From: an uncultured bacterium
GTDB taxonomy: Bacteria > Bacillota > Clostridia > Christensenellales > HGM11417
DNA length: 64,000 nucleotides
Direction: 5' to 3'
Assembly: GCA_905215695.1 (NCBI GenBank)
Contig: CAJMQN010000007.1
Location: 17,938 to 81,937, forward strand
The notes beneath the pieces are model-generated. The model was not told the DNA's origin. It was given only the letters and a program-made list of their open reading frames with translations, and ran no database searches. How positions within the stretch are numbered: position 1 is the stretch's first letter; each line of letters starts with the position of its first letter. The position numbers and the translations under genes were made by a program. Below, one piece after another: positions 2 through 49,352 of this stretch.

Positions 2-421
2 TCCAATGTCCGGGAGATGGAAGGACTTTTGTATCGGGTGACCTTCTACGCCTCTCTCCTCGGGAGCCAAAAGGTCACGTACGACGTCGCCATCGAGGCG
101 CTGAAGGATTACATGGATTCCAAAAAGGAACAGCTCACGGCGGACCGCGTGATCTCCACCGTCTGCGAATACTTCCACATCTCCAAAGAGGATATTATCT
201 CCAAAAAGAAGAACAAGGAGATCGTGGAGCCCCGCATGGTGTGCATCTACGTCATCACGGATATGCTCAACATGCCACTCGCCGCCATCGGGAACATTCT
301 CGGCGGAAGAGACCACACAACAATCATTCACGCGCGGGACAAGATTGCCGAACAGCTCAAAAACAACGACAGCATCGGCATCGCGGTCAAGGACATCAAA
401 GACATGCTTTTGCAGATATAA
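2..421 (+). CDS. dnaA: DnaA replication initiator, C-terminal DNA-binding domain (5' end off-window)
   Basis: The frame is open from the window edge. SNVREMEGLL...MVCIYVITDMLNMPLAAIGNILGGRDHTTIIHARDKIAEQL matches the DnaA domain IV signature. Confidence 0.92.
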   Translation, partial: SNVREMEGLLYRVTFYASLLGSQKVTYDVAIEALKDYMDSKKEQLTADRVISTVCEYFHISKEDIISKKKNKEIVEPRMVCIYVITDMLNMPLAAIGNILGGRDHTTIIHARDKIAEQLKNNDSIGIAVKDIKDMLLQI

Positions 422-456
422 ACAAAAGGGAGAGCGGAATCCGCTCTCCCTTTTGT
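422..456. terminator. Bidirectional hairpin terminator between the convergent dnaA and LRR genes
   Basis: Perfect 16-bp stem acaaaagggagagcgg/ccgctctcccttttgt with a 3-nt loop and A/T runs on both sides. Confidence 0.75.
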
Positions 457-1394
457 TAATCGCCTGTATAACCATATTCATAATAATTATAATCGTTATC
501 ATTCCATAGAGGATCCCATCCCGCGGGAATTTCTTCTCTCTTATAACGAATATATACGACTTGATCTCCTTTCCATCCACTAAACTGATATGCTCCCAAT
601 GAAACAACTGTTTTCGGAATAATCAGCTTTTTCAGGGAAGTACAATAGGCAAACGCAGCCTCACCTATTTTTTGAACCGTGTCGGGAATTTCAATAGAGG
701 TCAGAGAATGACATGCCATAAATACTTTTTTTTCGATTTTCTCAATTCGAGTTCCCGATGCAAATTTTACTTCTCGAAGCGCTGTACAATGTCGAAACAT
801 ATTTTCTTTCAGTTCCGTTATGCCATTAGGAATCGTAAACGAAACCAATTTTTCACAGTCTCCAAAAGCGCCTTCTCCTATTTCCGTAACGCTTTCGGGA
901 ATCTGATAGGTATCCCCCTCTTTTCCCGCAGGATAGGAGATCAGCTTTCCTTTTTTGTCAAACAGGACGCCGTCCTCGGACTTGTAGCGGGGATGAGATT
1001 CCGGAACGACTATTTTTTTTAGTTTATCTCCATTAATAAATCCTATTTCCTCGACATTGAGCGAAATTTCCACGCTCGTGGCGTTTCCGCAGGAGAAACT
1101 CCCTATGACCAAAATCGGAAGGTATTCTTTGTCCCCACGCCCTTTGTACGCGGAGGGAATAATCACTTCTCCTTCGAGCGAGGAGGGTTGAAACACACTA
1201 TAAAATTTTTTATTTTCGGAGAGAGAATAGGATATATTGCCTGTATAGAGCGTCTTTCCGCAGTGATCGCACACCCCTTCGCTGTCCACGGATAGTTTGT
1301 GACCGGAAAAATTATCGGTGTTTTGTCTGTCCCTACAGGCGACCGCCGCCGCGCAGAGAAAGAGAACACAGAGCGTACACAGCAACACAGTCAA
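456..1394 (-). CDS. BspA-type leucine-rich-repeat surface lipoprotein
   Basis: N-terminal signal with lipobox (AAAVAC). Repeated about 23-aa units (IPxxVxxIGxxAFxxCxxL) are typical of BspA-like LRR proteins. The start is TTG. Confidence 0.7.
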   Translation of the reverse strand: MTVLLCTLCVLFLCAAAVACRDRQNTDNFSGHKLSVDSEGVCDHCGKTLYTGNISYSLSENKKFYSVFQPSSLEGEVIIPSAYKGRGDKEYLPILVIGSFSCGNATSVEISLNVEEIGFINGDKLKKIVVPESHPRYKSEDGVLFDKKGKLISYPAGKEGDTYQIPESVTEIGEGAFGDCEKLVSFTIPNGITELKENMFRHCTALREVKFASGTRIEKIEKKVFMACHSLTSIEIPDTVQKIGEAAFAYCTSLKKLIIPKTVVSLGAYQFSGWKGDQVVYIRYKREEIPAGWDPLWNDNDYNYYEYGYTGD

Positions 1395-1420
1395 CTTTTC
1401 ATATTTCCCCCATTTTTTTG

Positions 1421-2524
1421 TTACCCTACGATTCTCACGGGGAGAATCAAAAAGAGAAATTCGTCCCCCTCAACGGGCTTGATGACACAGGGGGAGACCG
1501 CCGAAGTGAAGTTCATACGTACAAACTCCTCGTTCGTGTTCTTGAGCGCCTCGGAGAAATACCGCGCGTTGAAGGCAATCAAAAGGTCTTTGCCGTGCAG
1601 GGAAACCGGAATATTCTCCTTGATATTTCCGATTTCGGAATTGGAGACGAGGGTCAAAACCTTTTCCTTGACGTCGAATTTGACGAGATTGTTCTTGTCG
1701 TTCTTGGAGAGAATCGCCGCGCGCTCGAGACCGTTTTCAAACTGTTCGCGCTGTACCGTGATCTGCGAAGTGAACTCGCCCGGAATAATCTGCTCGTACC
1801 GGATAAATTCTCCCTCCAAAAGCCGGGAGATGATGGTCGTTCCGTCCACTTCTATCATGACGGAGTTCTTCTGAAGGTGTACCGTCACACTCTCTTCGGG
1901 TTCGTTTAACAGTTTCGCGATCTCGGAGAGCGTGCGGGCGGGCACGATGAGGCGCCCGTCTCCGCTCGAGGTCTCGACCTGCTTTTTGACGAGGGAGAGC
2001 CGGTATCCGTCCAACGCGACCGCCGTCATTTGCGTCTCTTTGATGTCCAAAAGCACCCCCTTTAAGATGGGGCGGGAGTCCTCCGTCGCCGCGGAAAAAA
2101 CCGTCTTCGCGATGAGATCCTTGAATTCTTTCTGCTGTAAGGAGAAATATTTGCCCGTGTCCACGCGCTCGATGAGCGGATATTCCTCCGAATTCAGGCA
2201 CTGCAAAAATCCCTCGCTGTCCATATAGCTGATTTTGAGCTGTTTTTTGTCGTTGAGGGTGATTTCCACCTGCTCCTTGTCAAGCTTGCGCACAAAATCC
2301 GCAAAATACTTTCCGGGGACGACGGCTTCGCCCTCGATACGGACGTCGGCTTTGATCTTCTTCTCGATGGAGAGCTCGAGGTCGGTCGCAAAAAAGCTCA
2401 CCGTATCCTCGCGGGCGGTAATCTTCACACCTTCTAATACGGGGTTGGTCGTTTTGATTCCCACAGCCTTGGAAACTTTTAAAATGGCGTCACAGAGGTC
2501 GAGTCCGTTGCAGACAAATTTCAT
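1421..2524 (-). CDS. dnaN: DNA polymerase III beta sliding clamp
   Basis: MKFVCNGLDLCDAILKVSKAV... and about 367 aa fit DnaN. ATG at 2524 is preceded by AAAGGAG. The ORF-track start at 2671 is an upstream extension. Confidence 0.9.
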   Translation of the reverse strand: MKFVCNGLDLCDAILKVSKAVGIKTTNPVLEGVKITAREDTVSFFATDLELSIEKKIKADVRIEGEAVVPGKYFADFVRKLDKEQVEITLNDKKQLKISYMDSEGFLQCLNSEEYPLIERVDTGKYFSLQQKEFKDLIAKTVFSAATEDSRPILKGVLLDIKETQMTAVALDGYRLSLVKKQVETSSGDGRLIVPARTLSEIAKLLNEPEESVTVHLQKNSVMIEVDGTTIISRLLEGEFIRYEQIIPGEFTSQITVQREQFENGLERAAILSKNDKNNLVKFDVKEKVLTLVSNSEIGNIKENIPVSLHGKDLLIAFNARYFSEALKNTNEEFVRMNFTSAVSPCVIKPVEGDEFLFLILPVRIVG

Positions 2525-2598
2525 GGATGGTACTCCTTTTTTCTTCGTTACAAGAGTTAGATAGTATTGATTCACATTGGATAGTATTCGTAGTAGAA

Positions 2599-2862
2599 AG
2601 GTGGACAAGTTGATAAACGGATAAATCCCTTTGAATGTCTCTATTATACTAAATTTTCGGAGAAAAATCAATGGAAAGGGGGTTCTTTTTCAAATCGGTT
2701 GGGCGTGGACAAGCCCGGCGGGAGAGCAAAAACGATTGTGGATGATGTGGATAAGGAATCAAAAAATACGAGAAAAACGAACACTTATTCACTTATGCAC
2801 AGAGTTATCCACAAATTAACCCCAAAATTGCCCACAGCGGCGTGTGGAAGGGATGTGGACAA
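2599..2862. promoter_or_regulatory. DnaA-box cluster / candidate oriC segment upstream of dnaN
   Basis: Perfect TGTGGATAA at 2746-2754 and perfect TTATCCACA at 2805-2813. One-mismatch boxes at 2737-2745, 2793-2801 and 2854-2862. Two-mismatch boxes at 2600-2608, 2704-2712 and 2843-2851. An AT-rich stretch at 2540-2690 contains GATAGTATT twice (2560-2568, 2580-2588). Confidence 0.7.
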
Positions 2863-2947
2863 GAAAAAGAGGGGCAGAAAACGGGAAGAGGGAAAAAGGC
2901 GGGGCGGGAGAGTGGACAGATGAGAGGGTTTGTGATATGATAAACGC

Positions 2948-3838
2948 ATGATAAATTTGGAGTTGTACCGTGTGTTTGTGACCGCGGCAAGGTGCGGAAG
3001 TCTCACAAAAGCGGCGGAAAAACTGTATATTTCACAGCCTGCGGTGAGCCAATCCGTCAAACTGCTCGAAAATCAGCTCGGGGAAAAGCTCTTCCGGCGC
3101 ACTGCGCGGGGCATGGAACTGACCGATTGCGGAAAGATGCTATACAAGGTGCTCGCCCGACCCCTTGAGGAACTCGAAAACGCGGAAGGGAAGTTTTCGG
3201 AATGGCGCATGAGTCCGGGAGGAACCATCCGTATCAGTTCGTCGGATACCTATACGAAGTATTTTCTCATGCGCGAGATCGAGAAATTTCATAAAAAACA
3301 CCCGGAGACGAGTTTGATCGTCCTGAACGCGACGACGAGTGAGACCTGCGAGATGGTGAAATCGGGAAGAGCGGATATCGGCATCGTAAACCTTCCCGTG
3401 AGCGACCCCGAAATCCGTATGGTTTCCACCTGCAAGAGGTTTCACGACATCTTTGTCGCGGGACCGAAGTATCTTTCCATGCGCGACCGCATGATTCCGC
3501 TCAAGGAGCTTGAAAACTTTCCGCTCGTCATGCTTGACCGGAACAGCAACACGCGGAAATCTCTCGTGACCTTTGCGCACTCTCTCGGGATACACCTGCA
3601 CCCCGAGATCGAGCTCGGGAGCATCGACCTTCTGAAGTGGTACGCAAAGGCGAATATGGGAATTGCCTGCGTGCCCGCCGAATACCTTAAGGAAGAGCTT
3701 GAAAGGGGGGAACTCTTCGAAATCCGCACCGATCCTCCCATACCCGAACGCGCCGGCGGGATTATCCGTTCCGAAAAGGGACAGCTCAATGCGCTCATGC
3801 GTGAGTTTATCGACGATATGTGTCGGGAAGAAGAATAA
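2948..3838 (+). CDS. LysR-family transcriptional regulator
   Basis: N-terminal HTH LELYRVFVTAARCGSLTKAAEKLYISQPAVSQSVKLLENQLG, 296 aa. Confidence 0.9.
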   Translation: MINLELYRVFVTAARCGSLTKAAEKLYISQPAVSQSVKLLENQLGEKLFRRTARGMELTDCGKMLYKVLARPLEELENAEGKFSEWRMSPGGTIRISSSDTYTKYFLMREIEKFHKKHPETSLIVLNATTSETCEMVKSGRADIGIVNLPVSDPEIRMVSTCKRFHDIFVAGPKYLSMRDRMIPLKELENFPLVMLDRNSNTRKSLVTFAHSLGIHLHPEIELGSIDLLKWYAKANMGIACVPAEYLKEELERGELFEIRTDPPIPERAGGIIRSEKGQLNALMREFIDDMCREEE

Positions 3839-4115
3839 AAGAAAAGTTGTGCGGGCTGTTACGTCATGGCGCGGAATTCTGCGCTCGTAAGAGAACAGTT
3901 TGTCCGGGAAGCCGAGAAAATCTTACCGGGGCGCTGGATGCCGCGGAGGGCGCCGGAATGACCATTGACAAGGTGTACGGACTTTTGGATATTTTGAAGA
4001 AGGCAGAAAATGAATGACATTTGTACGCGCGGAAATACTCTCCAAATGGTTTCCGGATTTTTCGTCTTCGGTGCGCTGCTCTTTATCGGTTCGGTCTTGG
4101 TGTCGGAGGGAATGA

Positions 4116-4535
4116 GTGAGAGAAAACTTTAGAGGTAAAAATGTCGAAGTATATGACTTTTTGAGGGAGTGCGGGGTGTTTTTTTTATCCACAACGGAGG
4201 GAGACAAACCGCAAACGAGACCCTTCGGCGCAGTGATGGAAGAGGAGGGAATTTTGTACGTCTCAACTTCCAATCGAAAGGACGTCTATGCGCAGATGAA
4301 AAAAAATCCCGAAGTGCAGATTGTTTGCTTAAAGCCGGGTACTCGGGATTGGCTTCGCGTCGAGGCGAGGGCGGAGGAGGAGAAAAGCCGGGAGAGAAAG
4401 GAGAGAATGCTTGAAACTTGTCCCGTACTAAAAAAACGATTTTCCTCTTCCGAGGACGGAAATTTTGCACTGTTTGCGCTACATGTGCGGCGCTCTCTCC
4501 TTATGACGGACGAGGGCGCAAAAGAGTTGGAATAG
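4116..4535 (+). CDS. Pyridoxamine 5'-phosphate oxidase-like FMN-binding family protein
   Basis: 139 aa with the pattern FFLSTTEGDKPQTRPFGAV...LYVSTSNRKDVYAQMKKNPEVQI typical of the PNPOx split-barrel family. GTG start, with GGAGGG 5 nt upstream. Confidence 0.6.
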   Translation: MRENFRGKNVEVYDFLRECGVFFLSTTEGDKPQTRPFGAVMEEEGILYVSTSNRKDVYAQMKKNPEVQIVCLKPGTRDWLRVEARAEEEKSRERKERMLETCPVLKKRFSSSEDGNFALFALHVRRSLLMTDEGAKELE

Positions 4536-4537
4536 AG

Positions 4538-4563
4538 AAAGAGCCGGGATTTCCCGGCTCTTT
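4538..4563. terminator. Bidirectional terminator between convergent genes
   Basis: Stem aaagagccggg/cccggctcttt with a 4-nt loop, followed by a T-run. Confidence 0.75.
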
Positions 4564-14688: not shown

Positions 14689-15900
14689 ATGACAGGCAGA
14701 AAAAAAACAATCATACTCATGGCAATCGCCGTGGGTATTTTTTGTTGTTTGGGGTTGGCAAATTTTACCGCGTCGGCGGAACTAGACATCTGCGTTTCCT
14801 TAAAGCTCGGCGACGAGGTTTTTCTCTTCCGCGAGCCGGACATCGTGTATGCAGGGGATCTCACCGAAGAGATTGCCGAAAAGGGTATTTTCGACGCAAA
14901 GGGAAGATTTTTCGGATTCCGCGCGCCGATCGCGAAAAAATACCGGCTGACGGACATTGACAAAAAACTTGCCGAAATCAACGCGCTCGTGTTGGTGGAA
15001 CCGAAAAACGCTTCAGTGAAATTCAATCCTGCGAATCCCAAGGCGTCCGCAATCACGGATGACGAGGACGGCGTCAGTCTGAATCTCGAGCGGATCAAGC
15101 GGGAAATCGAGGAAAATCTGCTTGCGGGAAAGAGCTATATCGCGGAAGTCTATCCCGAACCGACCAAGGCGGCGCTGACCCGGAAGGACATTGAAGAGTC
15201 TTTGAATCTCTGCACAAAGTTTTCGACGGACATCAGTTCTTCCACCGAAAACAGAAAGAACAACGTGCGTCTCGCGCTCTCCAAGTTCAGCGGCAAAACC
15301 TTTTTAAAGGGCGAACAGGGTTCTTTCAACGAAATCGTAGGACCGAGAACGGAAGCCAACGGATTTCGGGCGGCGAAGGTGATTTTGGACGGAGAATTTG
15401 TGGAGGGAATCGGCGGCGGCGTGTGTCAGGCTTCGACGACGCTCTACAACGCGCTTCTGCTTTCGGGAAACAAGATTCTCGAAAAGCACAGACATTCGCT
15501 TCGGGTGAGCTACGTACCTCCCTCTTTCGACGCAATGGTGTCCTCCTCTGCGGACATGAAATTCGAGTGTGAAAAGAAGATTATGCACATCGTCACGCGC
15601 ACGGACGGGGTGCGGGCGACCGTAGAAATTTACGCAAAAAAGGATGCGGTCGGCATTACGCGAAAGAGCGTGATTCTCTCGGAGGGCGAGCCGCCGGAGC
15701 CGGAGGTCGAGGTGGACACGGAGGGCAAGTATAGGGATAAGATTCGGTATCGTGACGAAAAAATCATCGTGAGTCCTTCCAAGGGTGAACTGCGCAGTGA
15801 AGGGTGGCTGTACTATTCGGACGGAAGAAAAGTGAAGATTCGCACGGACGTCTATAAGGCGCAAAAAGGCAAAGTCATCGTGGGTGCGGAAGAGCGCTGA
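14689..15900 (+). CDS. VanW-family protein
   Basis: N-terminal membrane anchor and the VanW core GGGVCQASTTLYNALLLSG...SYVPPSFDAMV. Confidence 0.8.
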   Translation: MTGRKKTIILMAIAVGIFCCLGLANFTASAELDICVSLKLGDEVFLFREPDIVYAGDLTEEIAEKGIFDAKGRFFGFRAPIAKKYRLTDIDKKLAEINALVLVEPKNASVKFNPANPKASAITDDEDGVSLNLERIKREIEENLLAGKSYIAEVYPEPTKAALTRKDIEESLNLCTKFSTDISSSTENRKNNVRLALSKFSGKTFLKGEQGSFNEIVGPRTEANGFRAAKVILDGEFVEGIGGGVCQASTTLYNALLLSGNKILEKHRHSLRVSYVPPSFDAMVSSSADMKFECEKKIMHIVTRTDGVRATVEIYAKKDAVGITRKSVILSEGEPPEPEVEVDTEGKYRDKIRYRDEKIIVSPSKGELRSEGWLYYSDGRKVKIRTDVYKAQKGKVIVGAEER

Positions 15901-15973: not shown

Positions 15974-16049
15974 GGGCAATTAACTCAGCTGGGAGAGTGT
16001 CTTCTTGACGTGGAGAAAGTCAGGGGTTCGAGTCCCTTATTGCCCACCA
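15974..16049 (+). tRNA. tRNA-Val (anticodon GAC), CCA encoded
   Basis: Manual cloverleaf: acceptor GGGCAAT/ATTGCCC; D-arm ACTC-AGCTGGGA-GAGT; anticodon stem TCTTC/GGAGA with loop TTGACGT; T-arm AGGGG-TTCGAGT-CCCTT; 3' end ACCA. Confidence 0.9.
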
Positions 16050-47228: not shown

Positions 47229-49352
47229 ATGTCGGCAACAAACGGTTATCAGTCCGCGATTCGCGAAATCGACGGCAAAGTGACCATGCAGTTTTATGAG
47301 AACAGCTCGGACAACGACGCGGATCTCTCCCTCGTCGAAACAGGGAAAACGCCCGTCACGGACACCGGGACGGAATGGCGTTCTTACGCGCTCAAACAGA
47401 CCGTTTCGGCGGGTCTGCGTCCGGAGAAAAAATACGCGACGCTCGACGGATTGAGCAAACTCAAAGATACTGTCTATCCCTATCCCGAAACGCCGGAGAC
47501 AATCATGGCGCTTTGGAGCAGGGAACTGTCGGGGACGACTGCGGTGGCGGGAAATCCGGGCTATGCCTTTGCAAACCCGCCCGTACTCCGTCAGGAGTAC
47601 CACGCCCTGCGAAAAATCGGCTTTTTCCGTCTCGTCGGCGAGGAACAATGGGCGCAGGGACCGACGGCTTACAAAATCCGGCTCTATGTGCCGGCGGAGG
47701 AGTTCTCGGCGGAATCCGAACCCGTAGAGACGATTCCGCCCGCGGATTACAAGGCGTTTCTTGCGCAAACCCCCGCCGTAGAGGAGAAAATCATCTCCGG
47801 CAAATCGTATAAAATCGTTTCGGTCAGTATCAGCGCGACGGAAGAGAATTGCGTCAAACATTATATCGGCTTTGACCGCTACTATCAGGTGACCAAGGCG
47901 GAACTCGAGATAACGGCTTGGAGCGCCCCGGGCACGCCCGCCAAAATCATGTTTTTCTCAAACAGCCTGACCGCGGAATTTTTCTCGGACAATCTTTCGA
48001 TGATCAAAGTGCTTGAGGAAAAGACGGACAGCGTGGAAGAACTTTCCTACGGCATTTCCTCCAATTACTGCGAAGTCAAAGTGTTCAACGAAAACGACCG
48101 CTTTTCCCGCAATCCCGATTTGCTCAAGAAGAACCGCATTGTCAAACCCTTCATTCGGGGCGGACAAGGGGGAGCGTGGGACTCTCTCGGCACGTTCTAC
48201 AGCGACTCGTGGGAAGTCTCGGCGGGGACGAGCGTCGTCTCCTGCAAGGCTTACGACGTCCTGTATAACCTTCAGAAACTCTACGTCACCTTCCCTTTGA
48301 AACAATCGGCGAACGGTACTTATGCGGTTTCCCAAAACGTGACGATACGCGAGGCGTTCGAGGAGTTGGGCGCGCTCATCAACGCAAGCAAAAACGCCGC
48401 CGGAATTTACGGCGACGACCTGACCTTTGTGTTTGACAGCCGGCTCGCAATAGACTCTTCAAATATCGCAACCGCGGATAAAGGCTATGACAAAAAGGTC
48501 TTTCCCTATGTGTTATTGGGGCATGACACGGCATGGAATCTCTTGAGCACGCTCGCAAACGCCGCGAGGTGTCACGTCTATGTCAACCGTTCGGGGCAGA
48601 TTTGCGTGGTTTGGGACGAACCCGACGGCGAGAGCCAATACTGCGATTTCAAAATTGACGAAAGCAATGCCTTTTCGTACAATCTGCCCACAATGAGCCG
48701 GACGATTGCAAACCGCATTGTCGTGCCCTATTGCTACCTCGGTGAGGCGGGGAAGATAGAGGACAGTCGATTTACTTTTGAAAAGAAAGATTTTGAATAT
48801 GAGAACAACAATATCGTCGTAAAGATTGAATTAAAGAACTTTTATGACTTAATAACGGGAATTGATAGGCATGATAGTAAAAATTTTGATTCATATATAA
48901 CAACTAACATCAAAGAAATCCGCTATTCTTTCAATCAAATAGAAGTGGTATTCAACGAAGGTGAAACCGCGGAAACAATATATTTGGAAGTAAACGGAAC
49001 AAATCCGCGCGTTTTAAAAGAGGCAAATTATACCTACGAAAATCATGCGAGCCAAAAGCGAAACGGGATCGTGGAGTTTACGTTGAAATCCGGCAAAATG
49101 ATTTTTGAAAAGGATTCCGCGGCGAGCCGGGATTGCGCAAAAAAAGTCGCCGAAAGAATCGGCGCGATATACGGCGACGGAAAGAGTTATATCGAAACAT
49201 CATGGACAGGCGATTCCCAACTCGACCTCGGCAGAGCCGTACAGAGCCGGGGGAGTGCAGGTGACGATTACGCGGATTACGAAGTGGTAAGCAACGAAAT
49301 CATGTTGCGGCAGGGATTGCGCTTTACGACGAAAGCGCGAAAAATCCCGTAA
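47229..49352 (+). CDS. Large tail-tip / baseplate-like protein (707 aa)
   Basis: Its position and size fit a Tal/gpJ-type distal tail protein. It contains an AT-rich patch at about 48780-49070. Confidence 0.45.
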   Translation: MSATNGYQSAIREIDGKVTMQFYENSSDNDADLSLVETGKTPVTDTGTEWRSYALKQTVSAGLRPEKKYATLDGLSKLKDTVYPYPETPETIMALWSRELSGTTAVAGNPGYAFANPPVLRQEYHALRKIGFFRLVGEEQWAQGPTAYKIRLYVPAEEFSAESEPVETIPPADYKAFLAQTPAVEEKIISGKSYKIVSVSISATEENCVKHYIGFDRYYQVTKAELEITAWSAPGTPAKIMFFSNSLTAEFFSDNLSMIKVLEEKTDSVEELSYGISSNYCEVKVFNENDRFSRNPDLLKKNRIVKPFIRGGQGGAWDSLGTFYSDSWEVSAGTSVVSCKAYDVLYNLQKLYVTFPLKQSANGTYAVSQNVTIREAFEELGALINASKNAAGIYGDDLTFVFDSRLAIDSSNIATADKGYDKKVFPYVLLGHDTAWNLLSTLANAARCHVYVNRSGQICVVWDEPDGESQYCDFKIDESNAFSYNLPTMSRTIANRIVVPYCYLGEAGKIEDSRFTFEKKDFEYENNNIVVKIELKNFYDLITGIDRHDSKNFDSYITTNIKEIRYSFNQIEVVFNEGETAETIYLEVNGTNPRVLKEANYTYENHASQKRNGIVEFTLKSGKMIFEKDSAASRDCAKKVAERIGAIYGDGKSYIETSWTGDSQLDLGRAVQSRGSAGDDYADYEVVSNEIMLRQGLRFTTKARKIP

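Follow-up and report, generated by a model that had tools for sequence, protein, structure and literature searches.

The DNA considered here is a 64,000-nt stretch (referred to throughout as the window) from an uncultured member of the Christensenellales, contig CAJMQN010000007.1, and the element of interest within it is a cluster of DnaA boxes lying between dnaN and a divergently transcribed lysR gene, together with the sequence that separates this cluster from the dnaN start codon. Gene calls were taken from an open reading frame (ORF) listing and from Pfam matches, and conspecific contigs supplied the sequence before dnaA, as this is outside the window. The 3' end of dnaA, comprising its last 139 codons, occupies positions 2-421 of the plus strand (Bac_DnaA_C, E 2e-25); in the conspecific contigs L001-L010, where the gene is complete, it encodes 455 aa. 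A BspA-type leucine-rich repeat (LRR) gene follows at 456-1394 on the minus strand (LRR_5, E 7e-31), and then dnaN, encoding the 367-aa beta sliding clamp, at 1421-2524, also on the minus strand; this is a complete ORF that starts with the ATG at 2524 and in which all three beta-clamp domains are found (DNA_pol3_beta, E 1e-29 to 1e-40). A LysR-family regulator (HTH_1 and LysR_substrate) lies at 2948-3838 on the plus strand as the first gene of the rightward replichore, with a promoter-like site for it at 2913-2941 (plus strand, TGGACA-17-TATGAT with an upstream TG, 10/12 consensus matches). The overall order is yidC-yidD-rnpA-rpmH-mnmE-mnmG-rsmG-cvpA-DUF1256-recF, dnaA, (LRR) dnaN, oriC, lysR. 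The original prediction was correct in describing dnaA as followed by a convergent LRR gene and a minus-strand dnaN, and in regarding dnaN and the box cluster as inverted relative to dnaA. As to interpretation, the features described below suggest that the interval 2525-2862 is very probably a complete, one-part chromosomal origin (oriC), coupled physically to dnaN and not to dnaA.

Potential DnaA boxes were scored by their mismatches against TTATCCACA. Two are perfect, at 2746-2754 (minus strand) and 2805-2813 (plus strand), three have one mismatch (starting at 2737, 2793 and 2854) and seven have two (starting at 2568, 2600, 2608, 2704, 2785, 2816 and 2828), so that 2568-2862 holds at least three boxes at a mean spacing below 100 bp, as is asked of an oriC. 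The cluster upstream of the inverted dnaN, with its two perfect boxes, had been predicted and is indeed present, at 2600-2862. Its distal part, 2704-2862, comprises the two perfect boxes, the three with one mismatch and several with two, in both orientations, and is found in all ten conspecific contigs. Sites with at most one mismatch number 16 in the window, as against 7.6 +/- 2.9 in shuffled sequences (a total reached in 0/100 shuffles); five of the window's sites lie within 126 bp of one another (Poisson P ~2.5e-10 at the observed window-wide rate), the others being scattered, and no other cluster of at least three boxes is present in the 21-kb conspecific loci.

Read in the sense of dnaN, the distal boxes (2862-2704) are followed by a predicted dnaN promoter (2671-2643), a proximal tandem pair of boxes (2616-2600), a TTT spacer, a DnaA-trio-like array (2596-2582), an AT-rich stretch of 57 bp and finally the ATG at 2524, all of the elements from the promoter onwards being on the minus strand. 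The promoter, TTGATT-17-TATAAT, has 10/12 consensus matches, and three species share its -35 and -10 blocks. The proximal boxes, TTATCAACT and TTGTCCACC, are aimed at the trios, which as read from the sequence are CTA CTA CGA ATA CTA in the dnaN sense (complement 3'-GAT GAT GCT TAT GAT-5'). The AT-rich stretch (2525-2581), a candidate unwinding region, directly precedes the dnaN start codon and is 65-70% A+T (62-72% for 2520-2680), compared with 47% for the window; it contains the dnaN ribosome-binding site and one copy of GATAGTATT. That GATAGTATT occurs twice in AT-rich sequence here had been pointed out earlier and is confirmed, the copies lying at 2560-2568 and 2580-2588. In an alignment of three congeneric species, i.e. 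that of the window and two intermediate relatives (located by protein search) whose DnaN is 90% and 79% identical, the elements kept are the two promoter hexamers (-35 and -10), the proximal pair, exactly one of the distal boxes, and CTACTACG, which is unchanged in both relatives. The second GATAGTATT copy was considered as a further conserved element and rejected, as the copy retained in the 90% relative is the first one alone, and this belongs to the trio array.

The published rule for a basal unwinding system (BUS) asks for a DnaA box with at most two mismatches, a spacer of 0-16 bp and at least three consecutive N-A-N trios on the opposite strand (PMC8287927). This combination is present, at the minimum that the rule allows, as TTATCAACT + 8 nt + TTT CTA CTA, the run being broken by CGA before ATA CTA; the tandem-pair form of the BUS is also found, with TTATCAACT/TTGTCCACC at 2616-2600 leading to the trios and on to the AT-rich stretch in the direction of dnaN. 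Nowhere else in the window is a box of at most two mismatches followed within 16 nt by CTACTA. Across the clade, a module consisting of a box, a spacer and CTA, TTA or ATA triplets is aimed at dnaN in 71 out of 80 upstream regions, and in 59 of the 80 the module score is higher in the dnaN-facing orientation; the spacers are mostly of 12-13 nt, the published distribution for BUS spacers having its peak at 10-13 bp with 13 bp most common (PMC8287927).

In order to follow the GC skew to either side, a composite of 72.6 kb was assembled by joining 8.6 kb of L001 to the window, which provides a left flank of that length. Over this composite the cumulative G-C curve, which the original prediction had proposed as a check, has its global minimum at 2440, 85 bp from the AT-rich stretch; to the left of the minimum all 1-kb bins have a negative skew, and to the right the skew is mostly positive, i.e. 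it switches from negative to positive at the site, as expected of an oriC. Gene orientation behaves similarly, in that dnaN, recF, cvpA, rsmG, mnmG, mnmE, rpmH, rnpA, yidD and yidC, to the left, are all on the minus strand, and the plus strand has most of the long ORFs to the right. Since the minimum is at 2440 and the putative unwinding end adjoins the dnaN start, dnaN would be transcribed outward, away from the origin, and the earlier concern that its inversion might cost it co-orientation with replication is not borne out. It is dnaA that, from the geometry, is head-on to the leftward fork, as it is in any dnaA-oriC-dnaN arrangement having the unwinding site beside dnaN.

A number of points weigh against reading this region as an origin. 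Both proximal boxes have two mismatches and the trio run is short, only TTT CTA CTA fitting the formal definition of at least three consecutive NTN triplets. A box with CTACTA arises somewhere in 45% of shuffled 64-kb windows, so that the weight of this site must rest on its position, orientation and conservation. The skew evidence spans 72.6 kb only, not the whole chromosome. Finally, in some relatives (L092-L094, L014, L015 and L017) dnaN has no boxes, implying that the coupling of oriC to dnaN is not universal. This absence of boxes would equally suit a different explanation, that the cluster is merely a DnaA-controlled promoter region for dnaN and the true origin lies elsewhere on the chromosome, and the same may be said of the strong promoter within the cluster and of the known role of DnaA as a transcription factor at box clusters (PMC4447404). 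However, the skew sign change and the switch in gene orientation coincide with the cluster, and the flanks hold such typical origin-proximal genes as rpmH, rnpA, yidC, mnmE, mnmG and rsmG; moreover, the trio and AT-rich module is conserved and is oriented as in proven unwinding regions. We consider a promoter-only role distinctly improbable, and an oriC remains the preferred reading of 2525-2862.

Two of the box-less lineages deserve a brief comment of their own. L092-L094, a relative with 66% DnaN identity represented by a 1.8-Mb contig, has a solitary dnaN with no upstream boxes and no dnaA within 10 kb, and the origin of this lineage must lie elsewhere. In L017 there are box clusters at 3031-3244 and 15530-15811, with four and five boxes respectively and two perfect boxes in each; relative to dnaN, which is itself without boxes here, the first cluster is 7 kb upstream and the second 5.5 kb downstream.

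The main alternative to a complete origin is the one put forward originally, according to which the boxes, dnaN and the LRR gene were inverted locally as one block, so separating the dnaN-side half of a bipartite oriC from dnaA and from its other half, and perhaps harming origin function as well as the co-orientation of dnaN. It has precedent on its side: a bipartite origin flanking dnaA is described as conserved in clostridia and in B. subtilis (PMC7561715), and a tandem order of dnaA, boxes and dnaN is also the commonest in relatives of the present species. However, no second cluster is found beside dnaA. The spacer between the divergent recF and dnaA genes, 158 bp in length, has no DnaA box at up to two mismatches in this species or in the 90% and 79% relatives, and in L001 and L003 the 350 bp before dnaA are free of boxes at up to one mismatch. 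The same was seen for 68 related loci that hold both dnaA and dnaN, in which boxes with at most one mismatch were counted over 350-bp regions. Upstream of dnaN there are 2.54 boxes per 350 bp, some 14-fold enriched, and 40 of the loci have at least three; upstream of dnaA the figure is 0.16, which is at background (0.18), and just one locus has three or more, the other 67 having no cluster there. Nor is there a cluster and a DNA unwinding element (DUE) between dnaA and dnaN on one strand, as would be expected for the second part of a bipartite origin, since the cluster is upstream of the inverted dnaN and only the terminator described below, with or without the LRR gene, lies between the two genes; the synteny rnpA-rpmH-dnaA-dnaN-recF is likewise absent. 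Further objections to a split are that the skew minimum lies at the 5' end of dnaN, which stays co-oriented with the fork, that the LRR gene is variable and was inserted later, and that the layout is fixed in lineages with 79-100% DnaN identity (see below). Given the absence of boxes upstream of dnaA, the origin would not have been split; it is better regarded as a single unit attached to dnaN, the complete origin having apparently moved together with that gene. The proposal of a split bipartite oriC is thus largely refuted already, and we would now rate it as distinctly improbable. More generally, these box counts suggest that Christensenellales-like Clostridia have no sub-origin on the dnaA side of the kind described as conserved in clostridia.

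Separately, the recF-dnaA spacer (L001 13472-13629) contains back-to-back near-consensus promoters, TTTACA-17-TATAAT toward dnaA and TTGAGC-17-TATAAT toward recF. The presence of strong promoters without any DnaA box suggests that dnaA is not autoregulated via nearby boxes.

An inverted orientation in a metagenomic contig might of course result from a misjoin at repeats, in this case near 421-456 and about 2940, and such an error had been raised as a possibility. The one observation to speak for it is the palindromic hairpin at 422-455. Identical DnaN protein occurs on at least 23 contigs, and ten conspecific loci (L001-L010), coming from ten samples and several assemblers, were examined, a further eight similar places being grouped with them. 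In all ten, dnaN converges on dnaA and lysR lies across the box cluster, so that independent assemblies agree both on the orientation and on the two junctions; L001 differs from the window by only three mismatches in 12 kb. The two further species also have the convergent layout. L095 and L096 (DnaN 90%) have lysR, boxes, and dnaN converging on dnaA and recF, without an LRR gene, and L091 (DnaN 79%, 61.5% GC) has the same convergent pair without lysR, a gene which is therefore variable. An assembly artefact can in practice be dismissed, as can a recent event, given that lineages with 79-100% DnaN identity share the arrangement; the convergent layout is a fixed, genus-level trait.

The gap of 34 nt between dnaA and the LRR gene (422-455) is taken up in its entirety by a hairpin with a 17-bp perfect stem, folding at -31.9 kcal/mol (z -8.2) on one strand and -32.2 kcal/mol (z -7.2) on the other, which is predicted to be a bidirectional intrinsic terminator common to the two convergent transcription units. 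A simple terminator scan did not pick it up, probably because the T-run is absorbed into the stem, although the hairpin is plain on folding. In L003 and L004 the stop codons of dnaN and dnaA are 36 nt apart with the hairpin alone between them. The LRR gene, the product of which is probably a lipoprotein, is missing from L003, L004, L007, L095 and L096; elsewhere it occurs in variants of 265, 310 or 360 aa, to which the protein cluster adds forms of 312 and 315 aa, and the insert has a short direct repeat, AACAAAA, at both ends. In the 79% lineage (L091) a different gene, of 298 aa, is found between the convergent dnaN and dnaA. The LRR gene is a later, strain-variable insertion between the dnaN stop codon and the terminator. 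Its absence or variable length among strains and in the 90% relative does not agree with its having been part of an inverted block, and since the hairpin stands between the stop codons, the supposed left breakpoint near 421-456 is better understood as a common bidirectional terminator at which accessory genes have come to be inserted. Gene slots of this kind, varying between strains, occur on both flanks of the oriC-dnaN unit (456-1394 and 2948-4540 of the window, seen among L001-L010); beyond lysR, strains have PNPOx and a 40-aa ORF, or GntR and an ABC transporter, or Flg_new, a phosphatase, GntR and an ABC transporter.

How the layout came about is a question that was approached by sorting 91 non-conspecific loci by gene order. 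In 49 of these dnaA, oriC and dnaN are in tandem on the plus strand, usually with recF on the minus strand before them and rpmH and its neighbours after; this commonest order, recF(-) dnaA(+) boxes dnaN(+), supplies the comparison with relatives that had been called for. dnaA lies 4-9 kb downstream of dnaN in 15 loci and upstream of it at more than 700 bp in four; another four, the outgroups with 60-64% DnaN identity (L011, L097, L100 and L101), have the order dnaA(-) recF(+) oriC dnaN(+), and four more are convergent, three of them being congeners of the window's species. In the remaining 15 there is no dnaA in the locus. In nearly all 91 the box cluster stays with dnaN, and the oriC-dnaN and recF/dnaA units are shuffled in at least five ways across the order. 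Given the majority order, a single inversion of the boxes and dnaN, of ~1.5 kb, is the simplest local description of the present arrangement, and to that extent the inversion originally suggested survives. It does not survive as the whole history, and was rejected as such: the LRR gene does not belong to the block, and the flanking synteny also differs, rpmH, mnmE, mnmG and rsmG being on the recF side here, in a different place and order from that in relatives, which requires more than one event. A different history for the same origin, in which the oriC-dnaN unit stayed where it was and the recF/dnaA unit was inverted and moved, or in which there were several nested inversions, with no single small inversion of oriC and dnaN, is consequently a possibility to be taken seriously, if not the one we would favour. 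It accords with the displaced genes beyond recF, and with the nearest outgroups having recF and dnaA flipped relative to the majority; on the other hand, two steps would be needed starting from the outgroup order, where one suffices from the majority order. Both the direction and the number of the rearrangements are here inferred from gene order.

Further along the window a few other features may be recorded. A single tRNA gene at 15974-16046 is the sole Rfam match in the window. The segment 47229-53500 has a low GC content (0.40-0.46, compared with ~0.53) and contains a 707-aa ORF at 47229-49352 without a Pfam match, as well as two minus-strand ORFs with weak, sub-threshold matches of coiled-coil type; it may represent an island just upstream of the ribosomal-protein operon. 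Between 54000 and 64000 short ORFs follow one another on the plus strand, and the purine skew is very high (AT skew 0.2-0.28); among these ORFs L3 (54093-54722) and L2 (55678-56508) are confirmed by Pfam; given these two matches, this is likely to be the S10/spc ribosomal-protein operon, on the leading strand about 50-60 kb from the origin.

Taken as an origin, the region could work as follows. DnaA, expressed from its own promoter lacking DnaA boxes, would occupy the distal boxes (2704-2862) as well as the tandem pair (2600-2616), and the latter would steer the DnaA oligomer onto the neighbouring CTA-CTA trios (2582-2596), and the 57 AT-rich base pairs before the dnaN start codon would then unwind. 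Of the two forks, the leftward one would pass through dnaN (co-directionally), the optional LRR gene, dnaA (head-on) and recF, and the rightward one through lysR and beyond. The tail-to-tail arrangement of dnaA and dnaN would represent not damage to an origin but an old, fixed rearrangement of two modules, the divergent recF and dnaA pair and oriC with its dnaN, the point of convergence having been closed by one bidirectional terminator and having later come to receive accessory genes, the LRR gene among them. No support was found for the suggestion that origin function might be impaired. The region would be an origin of the usual DnaA/BUS type, in a gene order that is uncommon but stable, and it belongs to an order of Clostridia in which origins appear to consist of one part, to be tied to dnaN and to have changed their position with respect to dnaA more than once.

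Among characterised origins, a close match in anatomy is the incC region of B. subtilis, which likewise has distal boxes, a proximal tandem pair, a short spacer, trios that read 3'-GAT-5' on the opposite strand, an AT-rich stretch and the dnaN start, in the same polarity (PMC6669920, PMC8287927); incC needs the proximal box #6/7 pair beside the trios and a distal box at least 44 bp away, which can be moved by hundreds of bp (PMC6669920). Unlike B. subtilis, the window's species has no incA/B-type cluster upstream of dnaA, its proximal boxes are weaker and its trio run shorter, dnaA and dnaN do not form an operon, and the module is beyond dnaN as seen from dnaA and on the opposite strand. In C. 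difficile, oriC2 is the dnaA-dnaN spacer and has been unwound experimentally, its trios being CTA CTA CTA TTA CTA CTA (PMC7561715); the sequence there, CACC-CTA CTA CTA TTA..., closely resembles CCACC-TTT-CTA CTA CGA ATA CTA here, and the DUE is between the trios and dnaN (PMC7561715), as is the candidate DUE of the present species. There, however, oriC1 and oriC2 are both needed in vitro and the order rnpA-rpmH-dnaA-dnaN is kept, whereas the present species lacks both an oriC1 and this synteny. Helicobacter pylori is similar in having a box cluster with BUS and DUE (here a candidate DUE) in one sub-origin of its oriC1/oriC2, but there two clusters are looped around dnaA, as opposed to a single cluster with dnaA outside it. 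In Synechococcus elongatus, oriC is upstream of dnaN. That an origin need not adjoin dnaA is a likeness shared with E. coli oriC (mnmG-mioC) and with cyanobacterial origins (PMC4285127, PMC8287927); these are in other phyla, while in the present case dnaA is 1.1-2.2 kb off, depending on the strain, and convergent, within the Clostridia, a class in which the order dnaA-oriC-dnaN is held to be conserved. In a limited literature search, no paper describing the oriC-dnaN arrangement in Christensenellales, or a like layout, was found.

It may tentatively be proposed, as a generalisation, that oriC in gut Christensenellales-like Clostridia is a self-contained cassette, fixed to dnaN and with the dnaN promoter inside it; that dnaA in these organisms has lost whatever cluster it had, together with classical autoregulation and the dnaA-dnaN operon; and that the cassette and recF/dnaA have been repeatedly re-arranged (in tandem, convergently, on opposite strands to either side of recF, or at a distance of 4-9 kb). 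Firmicutes and clostridia are taken to have conserved both the order dnaA-oriC-dnaN and a two-part origin (PMC7561715), and here would be a whole lineage with a one-part origin attached to dnaN, offering natural test cases for the need for a dnaA-side cluster, for the adjacency of dnaA to the origin and for clamp expression tied to DnaA occupancy. In practical terms, programs for finding origins or rotating genomes that take dnaA as their anchor, or look for the origin in the dnaA-dnaN interval, would misplace it in these genomes by ~2-3 kb, in the wrong intergenic region. If the proposal is true, Firmicutes would need neither a bipartite architecture nor cis-linkage of dnaA to oriC, and the expression of the clamp (DnaN) may be set directly by the occupancy of oriC by DnaA.

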